In this document: piece after piece, positions 20,243-44,039 of the stretch
Numbering within the stretch: position 1 is the first letter of the stretch
Layout: every line of letters begins with the position of its first letter
From: Escherichia coli
Lineage (GTDB): Bacteria; Pseudomonadota; Gammaproteobacteria; Enterobacterales; Enterobacteriaceae
NCBI RefSeq assembly: GCF_003334335.1
Contig: NZ_QOWQ01000035.1
Direction: 5' to 3' (one strand)
DNA length: 47,404 nucleotides
Translations under genes and position numbers: made by a program
The notes under the pieces: model-generated
What the model was told of the DNA's origin: nothing
What the model saw: the letters and a program-made list of their open reading frames with translations, nothing else
Database searches by the model: none

Positions 20243-21030
20243 ATGCAAACCATCACCATCGCCCCACCCAAGCGCAGCTGGTTCTCGCTTCTGAGCTGGG
20301 CCGTTGTACTCGCCGTGTTGGTCGTCTCGTGGCAGGGCGCGGAAATGGCCCCGCTTACGCTGATCAAAGACGGCGGCAACATGGCGACGTTCGCCGCCGA
20401 CTTCTTCCCGCCCGATTTCAGCCAGTGGCAGGATTACCTCACCGAAATGGCCGTCACGCTGCAAATCGCCGTCTGGGGCACCGCGCTGGCGGTGGTTCTC
20501 TCCATCCCCTTTGGCCTGATGAGCGCCGAAAACCTGGTGCCGTGGTGGGTTTACCAGCCCGTTCGCCGCCTGATGGACGCCTGCCGCGCCATTAACGAAA
20601 TGGTCTTCGCCATGCTGTTCGTGGTCGCCGTCGGCCTCGGCCCGTTCGCTGGCGTGCTGGCGTGCTGGCGCTGTTTATCCACACCACCGGCGTGCTCTCC
20701 AAGCTGCTTTCCGAAGCGGTGGAAGCGATTGAACCCGGCCCGGTGGAAGGCATTCGCGCCACCGGTGCCAACAAGCTCGAAGAGATCCTCTACGGCGTGC
20801 TGCCACAGGTGATGCCACTGCTGATCTCCTACTCCCTCTATCGCTTCGAATCCAACGTCCGCTCGGCGACCGTCGTCGGCATGGTCGGCGCAGGCGGGAT
20901 CGGCGTCACCCTGTGGGAAGCGATTCGCGGTTTCCAGTTCCAACAAACCTGCGCCCTGATGGTGCTTATCATCGTCACGGTCAGCCTGCTGGATTTCCTC
21001 TCTCAACGGTTGCGTAAGCACTTTATCTGA
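20243..21030 (+). pseudogene. phnE: phosphonate ABC transporter permease phnE, disrupted by frameshift within a tandem 8-bp repeat
   Basis: Permease reading frame is split between two overlapping ORFs (frame change near 20648-20671, where gctggcgt occurs twice then gctggcgc); known cryptic K-12 allele. Confidence 0.88.
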
Positions 21031-36875: not shown

Positions 36876-38861
36876 ATGAATAACTCTCGGTTATTCCGTT
36901 TGAGCAGGATTGTTATTGCGTTAACTGCCGCCAGCGGCATGATGGTAAATACCGCTAACGCGAAAGAGGAAGCGAAAGCCGCCACTCAATATACCCAACA
37001 GGTTAATCAGAATTACGCCAAATCATTACCGTTTAGCGATCGTCAGGATTTTGACGATGCCCAGCGTGGATTTATCGCCCCGCTGCTGGATGAAGGTATT
37101 CTGCGTGATGCGAACGGTAAAGTTTACTACCGCGCGGACGATTACAAATTTGATATTAATGCCGCAGCGCCGGAAACCGTAAACCCCAGCCTGTGGCGTC
37201 AGTCGCAAATCAACGGTATTTCTGGCCTGTTCAAAGTCACCGATAAAATGTATCAGGTGCGCGGCCAGGATATCTCTAACATTACGTTCGTTGAGGGCGA
37301 GAAAGGCATTATTGTTATCGACCCGCTGGTGACGCCGCCTGCCGCAAAAGCCGCACTTGACCTTTACTTCCAGCATCGTCCGCAAAAACCGATTGTTGCC
37401 GTTATCTACACTCACAGCCACACCGACCACTATGGTGGCGTGAAAGGCATTATCTCTGAAGCCGATGTTAAATCCGGCAAAGTTCAGGTGATTGCCCCTG
37501 CAGGCTTTATGGACGAAGCCATCAGCGAAAACGTGCTGGCGGGTAACATCATGAGCCGCCGTGCGCTCTACTCTTACGGTCTGTTACTGCCGCACAACGC
37601 GCAAGGCAATGTGGGTAATGGCCTTGGCGTGACGCTGGCAACGGGCGACCCGAGCATTATTGCACCGACGAAAACTATCGTCAGAACTGGCGAGAAGATG
37701 ATTATCGACGGCCTGGAGTTTGACTTCCTGATGACCCCAGGTAGCGAAGCGCCAGCCGAAATGCACTTCTATATTCCGGCCCTGAAAGCCCTGTGTACCG
37801 CCGAGAACGCCACGCATACCCTGCACAACTTCTACACTCTGCGCGGCGCGAAAACCCGCGACACCAGCAAGTGGACCGAGTATCTGAACGAAACGCTGGA
37901 TATGTGGGGTAACGACGCGGAAGTGCTGTTTATGCCGCACACCTGGCCGGTCTGGGGCAATAAGCATATCAATGATTATATTGGTAAATACCGCGATACC
38001 ATCAAGTACATTCACGACCAGACCCTGCACCTGGCGAACCAGGGCTACACCATGAATGAAATCGGCGACATGATTAAGCTGCCGCCTGCACTTGCCAATA
38101 ACTGGGCCAGCCGCGGCTATTACGGTTCTGTCAGCCACAACGCCCGCGCGGTGTATAACTTCTATCTTGGCTATTACGACGGTAACCCGGCTAACCTGCA
38201 TCCGTATGGTCAGGTGGAGATGGGTAAACGTTACGTGCAGGCGCTGGGCGGTTCTGCCCGTGTCATCAACCTGGCGCAAGAAGCGAACAAGCAAGGTGAT
38301 TACCGCTGGTCGGCAGAACTGCTGAAACAGGTGATTGCCGCCAACCCGGGTGACCAGGTCGCGAAGAATCTGCAAGCGAATAACTTTGAACAGCTGGGCT
38401 ATCAGGCCGAGTCCGCCACATGGCGCGGTTTCTACCTGACCGGCGCGAAAGAGCTGCGCGAAGGGGTGCATAAGTTCAGCCACGGCACCACCGGTTCCCC
38501 GGACACCATTCGCGGGATGTCGGTCGAAATGCTGTTCGACTTTATGGCCGTTCGCCTCGATAGCGCGAAAGCTGCGGGTAAAAATATCAGCCTGAACTTC
38601 AATATGAGCAACGGCGATAACCTCAACCTGACGCTGAACGATAGCGTGCTTAACTACCGGAAAACGCTGCAACCGCAAGCCGACGCCTCTTTCTACATCA
38701 GCCGTGAAGATCTGCACGCCGTGCTGACCGGACAAGCCAAAATGGCGGATCTGGTAAAAGCGAAGAAAGCCAAAATTATTGGCAATGGCGCGAAACTGGA
38801 AGAAATTATCGCCTGTCTGGATAATTTCGATTTGTGGGTGAATATCGTAACCCCAAATTAA
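36876..38861 (+). CDS. yjcS: periplasmic alkyl/aryl-sulfatase-like metallo-beta-lactamase-fold hydrolase YjcS
   Basis: 661-aa ORF from MNNSRLF with signal peptide and HSHTDH motif. Confidence 0.92.
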
Positions 38862-38870
38862 TGTCACTCG

Positions 38871-38910
38871 CTTTTGGGGGCGCTGAAGCCCCCAAAAGTA
38901 TTTATTTTAA
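38871..38910 (+). terminator. rho-independent terminator after yjcS (cttttggggg cgctgaa gcccccaaaag then T/A-rich tail)
   Basis: Perfect 10-bp stem followed by tatttatttt. Confidence 0.65.
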
Positions 38911-39069
38911 AAATATATACAGCCAATTAATAAATAAAATATATAAGTTATGAATGCGGTGGCTGAATAAAGCTATTTTTATTCATCAAGAAAATAGCCA
39001 TACTGACGCCTTCAATGGATATTGATATTCACTACAGATATTGTTCGCAGCAGACAGGATGTATTTAAT

Positions 39070-39345
39070 ATGCCAACAGTTCTCTCTCGCATGGCGATGC
39101 AACTCAAAAAAACAGCCTGGATAATTCCCGTCTTCATGGTTTCGGGATGCTCATTATCTCCGGCAATCCCGGTGATCGGCGCTTATTATCCCAGCTGGTT
39201 TTTCTGCGCCATTGCCAGCCTTATTTTGACGCTCATCACGAGGCGAGTTATTCAGCGGGCAAATATCAATCTGGCATTTGTCGGAATTATTTATACCGCC
39301 CTTTTTGCTCTCTACGCCATGCTGTTCTGGCTGGCATTTTTCTAA
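39070..39345 (+). CDS. ytcA: small membrane/lipoprotein YtcA, first gene of the mdtNOP cluster
   Basis: 91-aa ORF from MPTVLSRMAMQLKKTAWIIPVFMVSGCSLSP (lipobox-like SGC). Confidence 0.85.
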   Translation: MPTVLSRMAMQLKKTAWIIPVFMVSGCSLSPAIPVIGAYYPSWFFCAIASLILTLITRRVIQRANINLAFVGIIYTALFALYAMLFWLAFF

Positions 39346-39363
39346 TCTATTTGAGACGCGCTC

Positions 39364-40395
39364 ATGGAAAGTACGCCGAAAAAAGCTCCTCGCAGTAAAT
39401 TCCCTGCTCTGTTAGTGGTTGCGTTGGCGCTGGTTGCCCTTGTTTTCGTTATCTGGCGCGTAGACAGTGCGCCATCAACTAATGACGCTTACGCGTCAGC
39501 AGATACCATTGATGTGGTACCGGAAGTCAGCGGCCGCATTGTAGAACTGGCGGTCACCGACAACCAGGCAGTCAAACAGGGCGATTTGCTGTTCCGCATC
39601 GACCCGCGCCCGTACGAAGCCAATCTGGCGAAAGCTGAAGCCTCCCTCGCGGCGCTGGATAAGCAAATTATGCTCACCCAGCGTAGCGTTGACGCGCAAC
39701 AGTTTGGTGCCGACTCGGTTAATGCCACGGTAGAAAAAGCCCGTGCCGCCGCGAAACAGGCCACAGATACATTACGCCGCACCGAGCCATTACTGAAAGA
39801 AGGTTTTGTCTCAGCGGAAGATGTTGACCGTGCAAGAACGGCGCAGCGCGCCGCAGAAGCGGATCTTAATGCCGTATTGTTACAGGCGCAGTCAGCCGCC
39901 AGCGCCGTCAGCGGCGTGGATGCATTAGTTGCCCAGCGTGCGGCGGTCGAAGCGGATATTGCCCTGACCAAACTGCATCTGGAAATGGCGACCGTTCGCG
40001 CGCCGTTTGATGGCCGGGTCATTTCCCTCAAAACCTCCGTCGGGCAATTTGCTTCTGCCATGCGCCCTATTTTTACCCTAATCGACACTCGTCACTGGTA
40101 TGTGATCGCCAACTTCCGCGAAACCGATCTGAAAAATATTCGCTCAGGTACACCCGCAACGATTCGCCTGATGAGTGACAGCGGCAAAACCTTCGAGGGT
40201 AAAGTGGATTCGATTGGCTACGGCGTGCTACCGGATGACGGCGGCCTGGTGCTGGGCGGCCTGCCGAAAGTGTCTCGTTCTATTAACTGGGTCCGCGTTG
40301 CCCAGCGTTTTCCGGTCAAAATCATGGTCGATAAACCTGACCCGGAAATGTTCCGCATCGGCGCTTCGGCAGTCGCTAATCTTGAGCCGCAATAA
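39364..40395 (+). CDS. mdtN: efflux membrane fusion protein (HlyD/EmrA family)
   Basis: 343-aa ORF with one N-terminal TM helix and coiled-coil periplasmic domain. Confidence 0.93.
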   Translation: MESTPKKAPRSKFPALLVVALALVALVFVIWRVDSAPSTNDAYASADTIDVVPEVSGRIVELAVTDNQAVKQGDLLFRIDPRPYEANLAKAEASLAALDKQIMLTQRSVDAQQFGADSVNATVEKARAAAKQATDTLRRTEPLLKEGFVSAEDVDRARTAQRAAEADLNAVLLQAQSAASAVSGVDALVAQRAAVEADIALTKLHLEMATVRAPFDGRVISLKTSVGQFASAMRPIFTLIDTRHWYVIANFRETDLKNIRSGTPATIRLMSDSGKTFEGKVDSIGYGVLPDDGGLVLGGLPKVSRSINWVRVAQRFPVKIMVDKPDPEMFRIGASAVANLEPQ

Positions 40396-42446
40396 TGAGC
40401 GCGCTCAACTCCCTGCCATTACCGGTGGTCAGGCTGCTGGCGTTCTTTCATGAAGAGTTAAGCGAGCGGCGACCAGGTCGCGTGCCGCAGACCGTGCAAC
40501 TCTGGGTAGGCTGCCTGCTGGTGATTCTGATCTCGATGACCTTTGAGATCCCTTTTGTGGCGTTATCGCTGGCAGTGCTGTTTTACGGTATTCAGTCGAA
40601 CGCGTTTTACACCAAATTTGTCGCGATCTTGTTTGTGGTTGCCACGGTGCTGGAGATCGGCAGCCTGTTTTTGATCTACAAATGGTCATACGGCGAACCG
40701 TTGATCCGATTGATCATCGCCGGACCGATCCTGATGGGCTGCATGTTTTTGATGCGCACCCATCGCTTGGGGCTGGTCTTTTTCGCCGTCGCCATTGTCG
40801 CTATTTACGGGCAAACCTTCCCCGCCATGCTCGACTATCCGGAAGTGGTCGTGCGCTTAACGCTGTGGTGTATCGTTGTTGGCCTCTATCCAACCTTGCT
40901 GATGACGTTAATCGGCGTGCTGTGGTTTCCCAGTCGTGCCATTTCGCAAATGCATCAGGCGCTTAATGATCGGCTTGATGATGCCATTAGTCACCTGACA
41001 GACAGCCTCGCACCGCTACCCGAAACGCGGATTGAAAGAGAGGCGCTGGCGCTACAAAAACTCAATGTCTTTTGCCTCGCGGACGATGCCAACTGGCGAA
41101 CTCAAAACGCATGGTGGCAAAGCTGCGTGGCAACGGTAACCTACATTTACTCGACGCTGAATCGCTACGATCCCACCTCTTTTGCTGATTCTCAGGCAAT
41201 TATTGAATTCCGACAAAAATTAGCTTCAGAAATCAACAAGCTGCAGCATGCCGTTGCTGAAGGTCAGTGCTGGCAAAGCGACTGGCGGATCAGTGAAAGT
41301 GAAGCGATGGCGGCACGGGAATGTAACCTGGAGAATATCTGCCAGACGTTGTTACAACTGGGTCAGATGGACCCGAATACGCCGCCAACGCCCGCAGCCA
41401 AACCGCCATCAATGGCCGCCGATGCTTTTACCAATCCAGACTATATGCGCTACGCGGTAAAAACGCTGCTCGCCTGTTTGATCTGTTACACCTTTTACAG
41501 CGGCGTGGACTGGGAAGGCATTCACACCTGTATGCTGACATGCGTGATCGTCGCTAACCCAAATGTCGGTTCGTCGTACCAGAAGATGGTGCTGCGTTTT
41601 GGCGGGGCCTTTTGCGGCGCGATTCTGGCGCTGTTATTCACGCTACTGGTCATGCCCTGGCTGGACAATATTGTCGAATTGCTGTTTGTGCTGGCACCGA
41701 TTTTCCTGTTGGGCGCATGGATTGCCACCAGCTCTGAACGCTCTTCTTATATCGGCACACAGATGGTGGTCACCTTCGCGCTCGCCACGCTCGAAAACGT
41801 TTTTGGCCCAGTGTACGACCTGGTGGAAATTCGCGATCGCGCCCTGGGTATCATCATTGGTACCGTGGTGTCCGCGGTGATTTACACCTTTGTCTGGCCT
41901 GAAAGTGAAGCGCGCACACTGCCGCAAAAACTGGCTGGCACGCTGGGTATGTTAAGTAAAGTAATGCGGATCCCACGCCAGCAGGAAGTCACGGCTCTGC
42001 GCACTTATCTGCAAATTCGTATCGGTCTGCATGCGGCGTTTAATGCCTGTGAAGAGATGTGCCAACGCGTGGCGCTGGAGCGTCAACTGGACAGCGAAGA
42101 ACGCGCATTACTGATTGAACGTTCGCAAACGGTTATTCGTCAGGGCCGCGATCTTCTTCACGCCTGGGATGCCACCTGGAACTCGGCGCAGGCGCTGGAT
42201 AACGCACTACAGCCGGACAGAGCAGGTCAGTTTGCCGACGCCCTGGAGAAATACGCTGCCGGTCTGGCAACCGCACTCAGCCGTTCTCCTCAAATAACGC
42301 TTGAAGAGACACCCGCCTCTCAGGCCATCCTGCCCACCTTATTAAAACAGGAGCAACACGTCTGCCAGCTTTTCGCCCGCTTGCCAGACTGGACAGCCCC
42401 GGCATTAACGCCCGCCACGGAACAGGCACAAGGAGCCACGCAATGA
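40395..42446 (+). CDS. mdtO: efflux inner-membrane component, fusaric-acid-resistance / AaeB-like family
   Basis: 683-aa ORF with two hydrophobic blocks separated by a soluble region; start overlaps mdtN stop. Confidence 0.92.
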   Translation: MSALNSLPLPVVRLLAFFHEELSERRPGRVPQTVQLWVGCLLVILISMTFEIPFVALSLAVLFYGIQSNAFYTKFVAILFVVATVLEIGSLFLIYKWSYGEPLIRLIIAGPILMGCMFLMRTHRLGLVFFAVAIVAIYGQTFPAMLDYPEVVVRLTLWCIVVGLYPTLLMTLIGVLWFPSRAISQMHQALNDRLDDAISHLTDSLAPLPETRIEREALALQKLNVFCLADDANWRTQNAWWQSCVATVTYIYSTLNRYDPTSFADSQAIIEFRQKLASEINKLQHAVAEGQCWQSDWRISESEAMAARECNLENICQTLLQLGQMDPNTPPTPAAKPPSMAADAFTNPDYMRYAVKTLLACLICYTFYSGVDWEGIHTCMLTCVIVANPNVGSSYQKMVLRFGGAFCGAILALLFTLLVMPWLDNIVELLFVLAPIFLLGAWIATSSERSSYIGTQMVVTFALATLENVFGPVYDLVEIRDRALGIIIGTVVSAVIYTFVWPESEARTLPQKLAGTLGMLSKVMRIPRQQEVTALRTYLQIRIGLHAAFNACEEMCQRVALERQLDSEERALLIERSQTVIRQGRDLLHAWDATWNSAQALDNALQPDRAGQFADALEKYAAGLATALSRSPQITLEETPASQAILPTLLKQEQHVCQLFARLPDWTAPALTPATEQAQGATQ

Positions 42447-43909
42447 TCAATCGTCAACTTTCACGTCTGCTGTTGTGCAGCATTCTCGGCAGCACGACGC
42501 TGATTTCCGGCTGTGCCCTGGTACGTAAGGATTCTGCACCTCATCAACAGCTCAAACCGGAACAAATCAAACTGGCCGACGATATTCATCTTGCCAGCTC
42601 CGGCTGGCCGCAGGCGCAGTGGTGGAAACAACTCAATGACCCGCAGCTGGATGCGCTGATCCAACGGACGCTAAGTGGTTCACACACCCTCGCCGAAGCG
42701 AAACTGCGGGAAGAAAAAGCGCAGTCCCAGGCCGATTTGTTAGATGCCGGTTCACAATTACAGGTCGCAGCGTTAGGGATGCTCAACCGCCAACGTGTCT
42801 CGGCGAACGGCTTTTTAAGCCCTTATTCAATGGATGCGCCAGCACTGGGTATGGACGGGCCGTACTATACGGAAGCCACAGTAGGTTTGTTTGCCGGACT
42901 GGATCTTGATTTGTGGGGTGTGCATCGCTCAGCGGTTGCCGCCGCCATTGGCGCGCATAATGCCGCGCTGGCAGAAACCGCAGCAGTAGAGCTATCGCTG
43001 GCCACGGGCGTAGCGCAGCTTTATTACAGTATGCAGGCCAGCTATCAGATGCTCGATCTGTTAGAACAAACTCACGATGTGATTGATTACGCGGTGAAAG
43101 CGCACCAGAGTAAAGTGGCGCACGGTCTGGAAGCGCAAGTGCCTTTCCACGGCGCGCGGGCACAGATTCTGGCGGTCGATAAACAAATTGTTGCCGTCAA
43201 AGGGCAAATCACCGAAACGCGAGAATCTCTGCGTGCATTGATTGGCGCGGGAGCCAGCGATATGCCGGAGATCAGACCGGTGGCATTACCGCAAGTCCAG
43301 ACCGGCATTCCGGCGACACTCTCTTATGAGTTGCTCGCCAGACGCCCGGATCTGCAAGCCATGCGCTGGTATGTTCAGGCGTCATTAGATCAGGTGGATT
43401 CCGCGCGGGCGTTGTTCTATCCGAGCTTTGATATCAAAGCGTTTTTCGGTCTGGACTCCATCCATCTGCATACCTTATTCAAAAAAACCAGTCGCCAGTT
43501 CAACTTCATCCCGGGTCTGAAATTGCCGCTGTTTGACGGTGGACGGTTGAATGCCAATCTCGAAGGCACGCGCGCCGCCAGCAACATGATGATTGAACGT
43601 TACAACCAGTCAGTACTGAACGCGGTGCGTGACGTTGCCGTCAACGGCACGCGTCTGCAAACGCTCAACGACGAGCGAGAAATGCAGGCTGAACGCGTGG
43701 AAGCCACGCGCTTTACCCAGCGCGCTGCCGAGGCCGCCTATCAGCGCGGCTTAACCAGCCGCTTACAGGCCACCGAAGCCCGGTTGCCAGTGCTTGCCGA
43801 AGAGATGTCATTACTGATGCTGGACAGCCGCCGGGTGATCCAAAGCATTCAGTTGATGAAATCGCTGGGCGGCGGGTATCAGGCAGGTCCCGTCGTCGAG
43901 AAAAAATAA
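42443..43909 (+). CDS. mdtP: outer membrane efflux factor (TolC/NodT family lipoprotein)
   Basis: 488-aa ORF with lipoprotein signal (LISGCAL); ATGA overlap with mdtO. Confidence 0.93.
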   Translation: MINRQLSRLLLCSILGSTTLISGCALVRKDSAPHQQLKPEQIKLADDIHLASSGWPQAQWWKQLNDPQLDALIQRTLSGSHTLAEAKLREEKAQSQADLLDAGSQLQVAALGMLNRQRVSANGFLSPYSMDAPALGMDGPYYTEATVGLFAGLDLDLWGVHRSAVAAAIGAHNAALAETAAVELSLATGVAQLYYSMQASYQMLDLLEQTHDVIDYAVKAHQSKVAHGLEAQVPFHGARAQILAVDKQIVAVKGQITETRESLRALIGAGASDMPEIRPVALPQVQTGIPATLSYELLARRPDLQAMRWYVQASLDQVDSARALFYPSFDIKAFFGLDSIHLHTLFKKTSRQFNFIPGLKLPLFDGGRLNANLEGTRAASNMMIERYNQSVLNAVRDVAVNGTRLQTLNDEREMQAERVEATRFTQRAAEAAYQRGLTSRLQATEARLPVLAEEMSLLMLDSRRVIQSIQLMKSLGGGYQAGPVVEKK

Positions 43910-43917
43910 AATGTCTG

Positions 43918-43950
43918 CCGCGTGATGGCTGTCACGCGGTATTTCGTTTC
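43918..43950 (+). terminator. hairpin after mdtP (ccgcgtga tggc tgtcacgcgg) with T-rich tail
   Basis: 8-bp perfect stem followed by tatttcgtttcg. Confidence 0.5.
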
Positions 43951-43990
43951 GTCACGTCAAAACTGACGACAGCCTGTTTTTCGTCAGAGT
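43945..43990 (+). promoter_or_regulatory. putative upstream activating sequence of fdhF (repeated tcgtca / tgacga motifs)
   Basis: Inverted repeat cgtca-aaac-tgacg and a further tttcgtca about 60-100 bp upstream of a sigma54-type promoter; assignment to FhlA is from prior knowledge of fdhF regulation. Confidence 0.4.
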
Positions 43991-44039
43991 TTTGAATAAA
44001 TAGTGCCCGTAATATCAGGGAATGACCCCACATAAAATG

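Follow-up and report, generated by a model that had tools for sequence, protein, structure and literature searches.

The ytcA-mdtNOP locus of Escherichia coli very probably forms a self-contained, four-gene operon for efflux across the whole envelope, which is built around an inner-membrane protein of the FUSC/ArAE ('putative efflux transporter') type and is paralogous to aaeXAB, with an outer-membrane channel of its own in addition. The stretch of DNA analysed (47,404 nucleotides, hereafter the window) is 100% identical to E. coli K-12 MG1655, and four of its open reading frames match the MG1655 RefSeq CDSs ytcA, mdtN, mdtO and mdtP identically (Table 1). The locus, for which yjcP, yjcQ, yjcR and sdsP are old gene names, is already annotated as ytcA-mdtNOP of E. 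coli K-12; the initial annotation had read it correctly, and the finding is not new. The span of 39070–43909 that it had assigned is exact, since its coordinates equal those of the four RefSeq CDSs, and the gene order that it had described (small lipoprotein, membrane fusion protein, 683-aa FUSC-type protein, outer membrane factor) is confirmed. Assignment of the genes by chance is rejected on the basis of NCBIfam equivalog scores far above their cut-offs for MdtN (NF007785, 535 bits versus 376), MdtO (1370 versus 821) and MdtP (NF007390, 1024 bits, more precisely 1023.7, versus 597), together with the match of YtcA to the Pfam family Ytca (PF17090; 1.7e-15).

Table 1. Features of the ytcA-mdtNOP locus, in window coordinates.
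Feature	Position	Strand	Basis or description
Intrinsic terminator of upstream yjcS	38870..38899	+	terminator scan: 12-bp stem, then T-run
AT-rich intergenic region	38900..39069	+	27.6% GC
ytcA	39070-39345	+	91-aa ORF, equal to RefSeq CDS
YtcA lipobox Cys27 codon	39148-39150	+	V-S-G-C27
mdtN	39364-40395	+	343-aa ORF, equal to RefSeq CDS
mdtO	40395-42446	+	683-aa ORF, equal to RefSeq CDS; inner-membrane FUSC/ArAE-family protein
MdtO N-terminal transmembrane bundle (residues ~26-180)	40470..40934	+	hydropathy, AF2 helices, conservation
MdtO first cytoplasmic helical domain (residues ~181-330)	40935..41384	+	
MdtO C-terminal transmembrane bundle, FUSC_2 core (residues ~347-503)	41433..41903	+	Pfam, conservation, GmALMT12 alignment
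MdtO second cytoplasmic helical domain (residues ~504-661)	41904..42377	+	
mdtP	42443-43909	+	488-aa ORF, equal to RefSeq CDS
MdtP lipobox Cys24 codon	42512-42514	+	L-I-S-G-C24
Intrinsic terminator closing the operon	43916..43941	+	terminator scan: 11-bp stem and T-rich tail

Operon organization

Judged from sequence, the four genes have the layout of a single operon: they lie on one strand, are bounded by terminators on both sides and are joined at mdtN/mdtO by TAATG (1-nt overlap) and at mdtO/mdtP by ATGA (4-nt overlap). Both of these gene pairs are predicted to be translationally coupled. A strong Shine-Dalgarno sequence for mdtP (AGGAG) is located within the 3' end of mdtO, and ytcA is preceded by AGGA, 8 nt upstream. 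The initial annotation had assigned overlapping stop and start codons to the genes in general, which is true for two of the three junctions; ytcA and mdtN do not overlap and are separated by an 18-nt spacer. This junction is its sole error.

The upstream terminator sets yjcS apart from the operon, and the AT-rich region that follows must contain the operon's own promoter. A promoter scan upstream of ytcA showed no good sigma-70 consensus on the + strand and identified no promoter or regulator of the operon; a published review likewise describes the mdtNOP promoter as lacking experimental confirmation (PMC11762307). The downstream terminator sits upstream of the fdhF control region. A functional tie between the pump and the alkyl sulfatase yjcS is unsupported and was dropped: yjcS adjoins the cassette in Escherichia, Citrobacter and Salmonella salamae and is missing beside it in Kluyvera and in all five distant cassettes, and a strong terminator lies between the two.

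Classification and fold of MdtO

The only Pfam matches of MdtO are FUSC (PF04632; 1.3e-17, residues 170–537), FUSC_2 (PF13515; 1e-7, residues 364–495) and, faintly, ALMT. RND, MFS and ABC profiles gave no Pfam match, the NCBIfam models gave no RND match either, and the nucleotide-binding domain and Walker motifs of ABC exporters are absent from the protein. This profile classification, which had been set in advance as the result on which the initial reading would stand or fall, upholds it. The description of MdtO as 'AaeB-like' is correct at the level of the family, within which MdtO and AaeB are no more than distant paralogues (24% identity over 157 aa, E 1e-4).

The high-confidence AlphaFold (AF2) model of MdtO (pLDDT 90.7, pTM 0.88) leads to the same family relationship. 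Its only real structural neighbours are the plant ALMT anion channels, and the top nine Foldseek matches are all ALMT1, ALMT12 or ALMT9, with a probability of 1.0. Matches to MFS proteins reach a probability of at most 0.16 with TM-scores of 0.08–0.13; the structural search returned no AcrB-like match and no real ABC match, and the model contains no large periplasmic domain. Published lists have nonetheless assigned MdtO to the MFS (PMC11762307 and a table of PMC8277102) or have labelled it 'RND, homologous to acrB' (PMC8672772), and the resemblance of its adaptor MdtN to EmrA, the partner of an MFS pump, would agree with the former. Taking into account both the Pfam profile search and the structural neighbours, which refute these assignments, the probability that MdtO is an MFS or RND pump is practically negligible.

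At the sequence level the relationship with ALMT is remote. A search with the single MdtO sequence found no homologue among PDB sequences, and only the MdtO family profile reached ALMT, matching the GmALMT12 sequence with an E-value of 1.7e-5. In this alignment, MdtO K397, R401, Y452, D481 and R482 correspond to GmALMT12 K109, R113, Y169, D197 and R198, of which K109, R113, R198 and Y169 are pore-lining or pore-network residues (PMC8890709). Alignment and model together show that the C-terminal half of MdtO keeps, as putative pore residues, the Lys, Arg, Tyr and Asp that line the ALMT pore, on a fold shared with ALMT and with the basic residues conserved. All five are among the conserved residues of the C-terminal bundle, which also include W373, G454 and Q456; in the N-terminal bundle R105 is invariant, and R121 and R154 are conserved.

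The two halves of MdtO are related to one another. Profile–profile comparison with hhalign aligns them over 292 collinear columns (probability 89%, E 2e-6), whereas BLASTP detects no significant match between them, so that the duplication is visible only at the profile level. These comparisons and the model show an ancient internal duplication, in which each half comprises a membrane bundle of about six helices and a cytoplasmic helical domain; AF2 helices and hydropathy both support this two-repeat FUSC/ArAE architecture. The tail (residues 671–683) is disordered. One MdtO chain thus corresponds to a plant ALMT homodimer. K397 and R401 have no counterparts in the N-terminal half, which would make the pore asymmetric.

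YtcA, MdtN and MdtP

YtcA is indeed a small lipoprotein, as first described: its lipobox reads V-S-G-C27, and G26-C27 is invariant in nine homologues. Beyond the lipobox lies a two-helix membrane module homologous to AaeX/DUF1656. The similarity to AaeX is detected by BLASTP (38% over 63 aa, E 8e-6) and by hhalign with the YtcA profile (probability 69%, E 4.4e-5, 60 of 67 residues), and the match to DUF1656 (PF07869) has a Pfam i-E-value of 0.0016 over 32 residues only. Homology between YtcA and AaeX is likely, although YtcA is no DUF1656 member by Pfam's own criteria. Sequence comparison suggests that YtcA is likely a lipoprotein version of AaeX, with moderate homology, and a conserved fourth subunit. 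DUF1656 genes have been found to be co-fit with neighbouring MFP and FUSC genes in transposon fitness data (bioRxiv 10.1101/072470).

MdtN is identified by profile search as an EmrA/EmrK-type membrane fusion protein, a periplasmic adaptor (TIGR00998; 419.7 bits, cut-off 390.8). Hydropathy indicates a single N-terminal transmembrane anchor (residues 13–31), and the protein is 29% identical to AaeA (E 2e-35). MdtP is an outer-membrane factor lipoprotein of the NodT subfamily (TIGR01845; 272.8 bits, cut-off 210), with a lipobox at Cys24. The whole operon is paralogous to aaeXAB, in that the pairs MdtN/AaeA, MdtO/AaeB and YtcA/AaeX all match.

Conservation and selection

Purifying selection on the cassette is strong: for divergent E. 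coli strains (dS about 0.09–0.14 for the pairs compared), dN/dS is 0.032 for mdtN, 0.050 for mdtO and 0.083 for mdtP; the value for ytcA is not computable, with two non-synonymous and zero synonymous differences. Of 5426 complete E. coli genomes, 5414 (99.8%) contain the operon. In each of eight other loci, the Ytca, adaptor, FUSC and OEP genes occur in the same order, with MdtO identities of 28–74%, and the flanking genes differ around the distant cassettes.

These data bear on the view that the operon is silent in E. coli, a leftover of evolution that no longer has a function there. Shortened mdtO products (for example 379 aa from residue 305), which are found on long contigs of many isolates, could be taken in this sense, as could the lack of a sigma-70 consensus promoter upstream and the appearance of phenotypes mainly after promoter-capturing deletions (PMC8672772). 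Such a remnant is nevertheless hard to reconcile with the low dN/dS of mdtN, mdtO and mdtP, with near-universal presence in complete genomes and with a cassette kept intact down to 28% identity, all of which make this view very improbable.

Proposed mechanism and substrates

In the mechanism that we propose for the four-gene pump, MdtO would accept the anionic forms of lipophilic aromatic weak acids from the cytoplasm or the inner leaflet; the anions would cross an electropositive central pathway into an MdtN tube docked to MdtP, and would thus exit the cell without re-entry from the periplasm. As there is no ATPase, transport would be powered by the proton-motive force, most likely in the form of the inside-negative membrane potential, which would act on the anion. 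YtcA may stabilise or regulate the contact between MdtO and MdtN in the inner membrane. A weak promoter in the AT-rich region would result in poor expression, with a phenotype appearing mainly when expression is raised.

The initial remark that such systems are less studied and their substrates poorly defined agrees with the literature (PMC11762307, PMC8277102). Members of the family export p-hydroxybenzoate and fusaric acid (PMC7682875). In a tolC mutant, raised mdtOP expression increases resistance to pyrrolomycin and armeniaspirol more than 8-fold (PMC8672772); both compounds are phenolic protonophores, and deletion of mdtOP removes the resistance (PMC8672772). The knock-out phenotypes listed in reviews concern puromycin, acriflavine and tetraphenylarsonium, which are cationic (PMC11762307, PMC8277102) and fit poorly with an anion pathway.

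Antiport explains the cationic compounds more easily, and it is possible, though less likely than not, that MdtO works as an ordinary secondary carrier. It would then swap substrate against protons by alternating access, which is what the transporter classification of the ArAE family implies, and would have no ALMT-like electrophoretic anion pathway. The protein has no ATPase domain, which leaves the proton-motive force as the only available energy. Although the ALMT proteins to which MdtO is related are channels, carriers can arise from related folds. On the other hand, the nearest solved relatives have a single central pore (PMC8890709), the basic residues lining it are conserved, and the invariant MdtO columns include no conserved membrane-embedded acidic pair of the kind typical of proton relays.

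The same resistant mutants raise the question of subunit composition. Resistance to pyrrolomycin and armeniaspirol still appears when ytcA and mdtN are deleted (PMC8672772), suggesting that MdtO and MdtP are able to function when their own adaptor and small subunit are missing, or that they can borrow others. Strain EP676, without ytcA and mdtN, is still fully resistant (MIC >64 µg/ml), and further loss of mdtOP restores its sensitivity (PMC8672772). MdtO and MdtP could accordingly constitute the functional core, with MdtN and YtcA dispensable or swappable with paralogues such as AaeA/AaeX, YdhJ/YdhI or EmrA, and with no obligate four-part machine; paralogous small-subunit/adaptor pairs do exist in E. 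coli. We consider this rather unlikely, given that all four genes stay together in the same order in all eight other loci, that mdtN is under the strongest purifying selection in the operon (ytcA being non-computable), that mdtN-mdtO and mdtO-mdtP show the signs of translational coupling, and that some of mdtN may survive in the published deletion. For the published 8855-bp alsR-mdtN deletion, the only microhomology at that offset is a 6-nt match, which is uninformative.

In a more speculative reading, which is less likely than not, MdtO and its relatives would represent a fourth kind of inner-membrane engine for efflux across the envelope, beside RND, ABC and MFS: an ALMT-type pseudo-dimer through which the membrane potential might drive lipophilic weak-acid anions, protonophores included, into an adaptor/OMF duct, with the lipidated, AaeX-like YtcA as an obligatory assembly or gating factor.

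The locus belongs to the E. coli core genome and its annotation is textbook knowledge, so that it constitutes no new discovery. The value of the analysis is corrective, as widely read reviews and resistance-gene papers list MdtO as MFS or RND, which the profile and fold evidence says is wrong. Concrete targets for mutation follow from the model of an ALMT-like pseudo-dimer, from the conserved basic pore residues and from the conserved lipidated small subunit, and the system could matter for how cells tolerate aromatic acids and protonophore antibiotics.

Comparison with known systems

AaeXAB shares with the mdt operon the order of small membrane protein, adaptor and FUSC protein, all three homologous, and AaeB has the same two-repeat architecture as MdtO. 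However, identity between MdtO and AaeB is only ~24%, over one membrane bundle, AaeX lacks the lipoprotein signal peptide that YtcA has acquired, and the alpha-hairpin insert of MdtN is longer than that of AaeA. In addition, the mdt operon includes a gene for an outer-membrane factor, and no LysR regulator comparable to AaeR lies next to it.

The same four components are found in Burkholderia Bucl8-FusCDE and Stenotrophomonas FuaABC, the FusC-type 'tetrapartite' fusaric acid pumps, which consist of an OMF lipoprotein, a FUSC protein, a ~67-aa protein and an adaptor (PMC7682875). In these pumps the OMF gene comes first, whereas in the mdt operon it is last; their small subunit is a plain DUF1656 protein rather than a lipidated Ytca variant, a LysR regulator is encoded next to them, and fusaric acid or pHBA acts as their inducer.

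EmrAB-TolC has an adaptor of the same subfamily (TIGR00998) with an N-terminal helix anchor, which presumably connects one transporter in the inner membrane with an OMF trimer. Its engine is an MFS protein, to which the FUSC protein MdtO is unrelated, and the mdt system differs further in having a dedicated OMF instead of TolC and an extra small lipoprotein subunit.

The ALMT channels (AtALMT1, GmALMT12, AtALMT9) have the six-helix bundle and cytoplasmic helical domain seen in MdtO, with detectable sequence similarity and with the K/R/Y/D/R pore residues conserved in MdtO; a link between the ALMT and FUSC_2 families has been published (PMC10490231). ALMTs are homodimers of ~400-residue cores that work alone as channels, with gating by malate, Al3+ or voltage. 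In MdtO the two copies have diverged and are fused into a single chain, which couples to an adaptor and to a duct in the outer membrane and whose channel activity is putative.

Organization of the ytcA-mdtNOP operon

The window is sequence of E. coli K-12 MG1655. Its bases 38900–44000 show 100% identity with MG1655-type chromosomes, and a match to this segment is present in 5420 of the 5426 complete E. coli genomes. Stop and start codons share one base at the mdtN/mdtO junction (TAATG) and four at the mdtO/mdtP junction (ATGA), whereas ytcA and mdtN lie 18 nt apart; the overlapping stop and start codons described for this operon in the initial annotation are therefore found at two of its three junctions, and mdtNOP display translational coupling. 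Intrinsic terminators located after yjcS and after mdtP delimit ytcA-mdtNOP as a bounded four-gene unit. The 170 bp 5′ of ytcA have a GC content of 27.6%, and a promoter scan of their + strand revealed no good sigma-70 consensus.

Features of the window, with position, strand and basis of assignment
Feature	Position	Strand	Basis or description
STnc630 sRNA family	11561-11726	-	full-length match, 181.8 bits
naRNA4/CssrE-type repeat cluster	17392-17668	+	RF02564
naRNA4/CssrE-type repeat cluster	20144-20224	-	RF02564
phnE	20243-21030	+	annotated frameshifted pseudogene
yjcS	36876-38861		alkyl sulfatase gene
Strong intrinsic terminator after yjcS	38870-38899		terminator scan
ytcA	39070-39345	+	91-aa ORF, base-for-base the RefSeq CDS
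mdtN	39364-40395	+	343-aa ORF, base-for-base the RefSeq CDS
mdtO	40395-42446	+	683-aa ORF, base-for-base the RefSeq CDS
Substitution run, MdtO residues 2–9	40395-40425		armeniaspirol-resistant tolC mutant
mdtP	42443-43909	+	488-aa ORF, base-for-base the RefSeq CDS
Intrinsic terminator after mdtP	43916-43941		terminator scan
fdhF	44107-46254	+	called as two ORFs, 44107-44526 and 44575-46254
SECIS_2 (bacterial SECIS element)	44519-44573		Rfam, 87 bits
naRNA4/CssrE-type repeat cluster	47042-47225	-	RF02564

An armeniaspirol-resistant tolC mutant is reported to carry the MdtO changes S2K, A3T, L4I, N5G, S6T, L7E and L9C (PMC8672772). Since these residues sit at the coupled TAATG junction, the substitutions may act on coupling or expression rather than on protein function.

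On the 3′ side of the operon, the ORF finder reads fdhF as two ORFs owing to an in-frame UGA that encodes selenocysteine, and the SECIS element lies right at this UGA, in line with known biology. Elsewhere in the window, the phnE lesion is the known K-12 defect, the RF02564 copies (69–111 bits) comprise a tandem triplet with 100-nt spacing in the yjdM–yjdN interval, a single copy in the phnD–phnE interval and a pair after yjcO, and the match to STnc630, an enterobacterial sRNA family, falls within the coding region of proP, in its 3′ part.

Protein families of the four components

All three Mdt proteins score far above the curated cut-offs of their NCBIfam equivalog profiles (MdtN, 535 bits for a cut-off of 376; MdtO, 1370 for 821; MdtP, 1024 for 597). 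MdtN, which has a single N-terminal hydrophobic anchor, also matches the EmrA/EmrK adaptor subfamily (419.7 bits versus 390.8), and MdtP, which bears the lipobox LISGC24, the NodT outer-membrane subfamily (272.8 bits versus 210). YtcA matches the Pfam family Ytca (1.7e-15) and, weakly, DUF1656 (0.0016). A domain search of MdtO, as proposed in the initial annotation, returned FUSC (1.3e-17), FUSC_2 (1e-7) and a faint ALMT match, and the Pfam profiles gave no RND, MFS or ABC match. The observation made in the initial annotation is confirmed, and its interpretation of MdtO as AaeB-like is supported by profile and fold evidence. The identity and family of all four genes are already present in public annotation.

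MdtO resembles a pair of ALMT protomers

An exhaustive search found 1648 relatives (E 0.001 or better). When 71 full-length sequences were aligned (alignment A1), R105, W373, R401, G404, Y452, G454, Q456, R482 and G485 were invariant. When A1 was cut at residue 340 and its halves were compared by hhalign, 292 columns aligned collinearly (probability 89%, E 2e-6), which argues for an old internal duplication; similarity between single MdtO halves was not detected by BLASTP. On this profile evidence, the repeat unit of MdtO, a membrane bundle followed by a helical domain, is anciently duplicated.

The AlphaFold2 model of MdtO computed from A1 is confident (mean pLDDT 90.7, pTM 0.88). Its nine best Foldseek matches in the PDB are the plant anion channels ALMT1, ALMT12/QUAC1 and ALMT9 (probability 1.0, ~370 columns), with a TM-score of ~0.5 per target, corresponding to a single half of MdtO on each ALMT protomer; in the same search all MFS entries had a probability ≤0.16 and RND proteins gave no match. 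The A1 profile also reaches GmALMT12 at the sequence level (E 1.7e-5), pairing K397, R401, Y452, D481 and R482 of MdtO with K109, R113, Y169, D197 and R198 of ALMT12. The cryo-EM study of ALMT12 describes two symmetrically arranged protomers that share a single electropositive pore at the centre, in which K109, R113 and R198 are basic pore-lining residues and Y169 belongs to the pore network (PMC8890709). The N-terminal half of MdtO lacks equivalents of K397 and R401, so any MdtO pore would be asymmetric. The modelled structure shows a pseudo-dimeric ALMT-like fold, and the basic residues are conserved; a link between ALMTs and the fusaric-acid-resistance domain has been published previously (PMC10490231).

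MdtO has been labelled an MFS pump (PMC8277102, table; PMC11762307, text) and an RND component 'homologous to acrB' (PMC8672772, text). Profile and fold evidence rules out both assignments and contradicts these classifications.

Proposed mechanism of export

We propose that MdtO would conduct the lipophilic anions of aromatic weak acids, taken from the cytoplasm or the inner leaflet, into an MdtN tube docked to MdtP, that the proton-motive force would drive export, most simply through the effect of the membrane potential on the anion, and that YtcA may be a membrane assembly or gating subunit. This substrate class is supported by relatives, which handle p-hydroxybenzoate and fusaric acid (PMC7682875), by a tolC mutant in which deletions place mdtOP under the als promoter, with MICs >64 µg/ml for pyrrolomycin and armeniaspirol, both phenolic protonophores, and sensitivity brought back on removal of mdtOP (PMC8672772), and by transposon fitness data in which DUF1656 genes are co-fit with the adaptor and FUSC genes next to them (bioRxiv 10.1101/072470).

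However, the same pyrrolomycin- and armeniaspirol-resistant strains lack ytcA and mdtN (PMC8672772), and the phenotypes that reviews cite for knock-outs involve the cations puromycin, acriflavine and tetraphenylarsonium (PMC8277102, PMC11762307). That MdtO is instead a proton-antiport carrier is a serious rival explanation. The proposal that in MdtO an ALMT-type channel fold is the engine of a trans-envelope pump is put forward as tentative and rather doubtful; if true, it would be the potentially interesting point of this locus.

Conservation of the four-gene cassette

Five distant MdtO homologues (42, 35, 31, 29 and 28% identity) are encoded among unrelated neighbours in loci that keep the order Ytca, adaptor with Beta-barrel_AAEA, FUSC and OEP, and the Citrobacter, Kluyvera and Salmonella salamae orthologues lie in the same cassette, upstream of fdhF. 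The cassette is therefore found in all eight other loci examined. The E. coli operon encodes no ATPase. yjcS directly precedes it in Escherichia, Citrobacter and Salmonella salamae and is absent from Kluyvera and the distant loci; since yjcS adjoins the cassette in some enterics only, and is set apart from ytcA by a terminator, no link between yjcS and the pump was drawn.

Comparison of K-12 with a strain whose mdtO is 96.3% identical gives dN/dS values of 0.032 (mdtN), 0.050 (mdtO) and 0.083 (mdtP), and 5414 of the 5426 complete E. coli genomes carry mdtO. These low ratios and near-universal presence lead us to reject a relic: the operon is under selection, despite truncated mdtO alleles in a minority of isolates. 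Many natural E. coli assemblies, including 5 Mb contigs, encode a 379-aa MdtO starting at residue 305 or other fragments (records P0118, P0282, P0283 and P0272), which points to recurrent disruption near codon 304 in some lineages. The records further include a 1070-aa ORF that fuses MdtO to MdtP (P0018).

Relation to AaeXAB and other FUSC systems

The ytcA-mdtNOP system belongs to the FUSC/ArAE efflux systems and is paralogous to AaeXAB. In a gene-by-gene comparison with MG1655 aaeX, aaeA and aaeB, AaeA and MdtN share 29% identity (E 2e-35), AaeB and MdtO 24% across a 157-residue stretch of the second membrane bundle (E 1e-4), and AaeX and YtcA 38% across 63 residues (E 8e-6). When nine YtcA homologues, in which the lipobox G26-C27 is invariant, are combined into a profile, it covers nearly all of AaeX (60 columns, E 4.4e-5, probability 69%). 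Because the start of AaeX aligns with the predicted start of mature YtcA, directly after G26-C27, YtcA is likely an AaeX homologue with an added lipoprotein signal peptide. In E. coli the operon is the equivalent of the Burkholderia FusC pumps termed 'tetrapartite'. It differs in its gene order, its lipidated small subunit, its own outer-membrane factor and the absence of an adjacent regulator.
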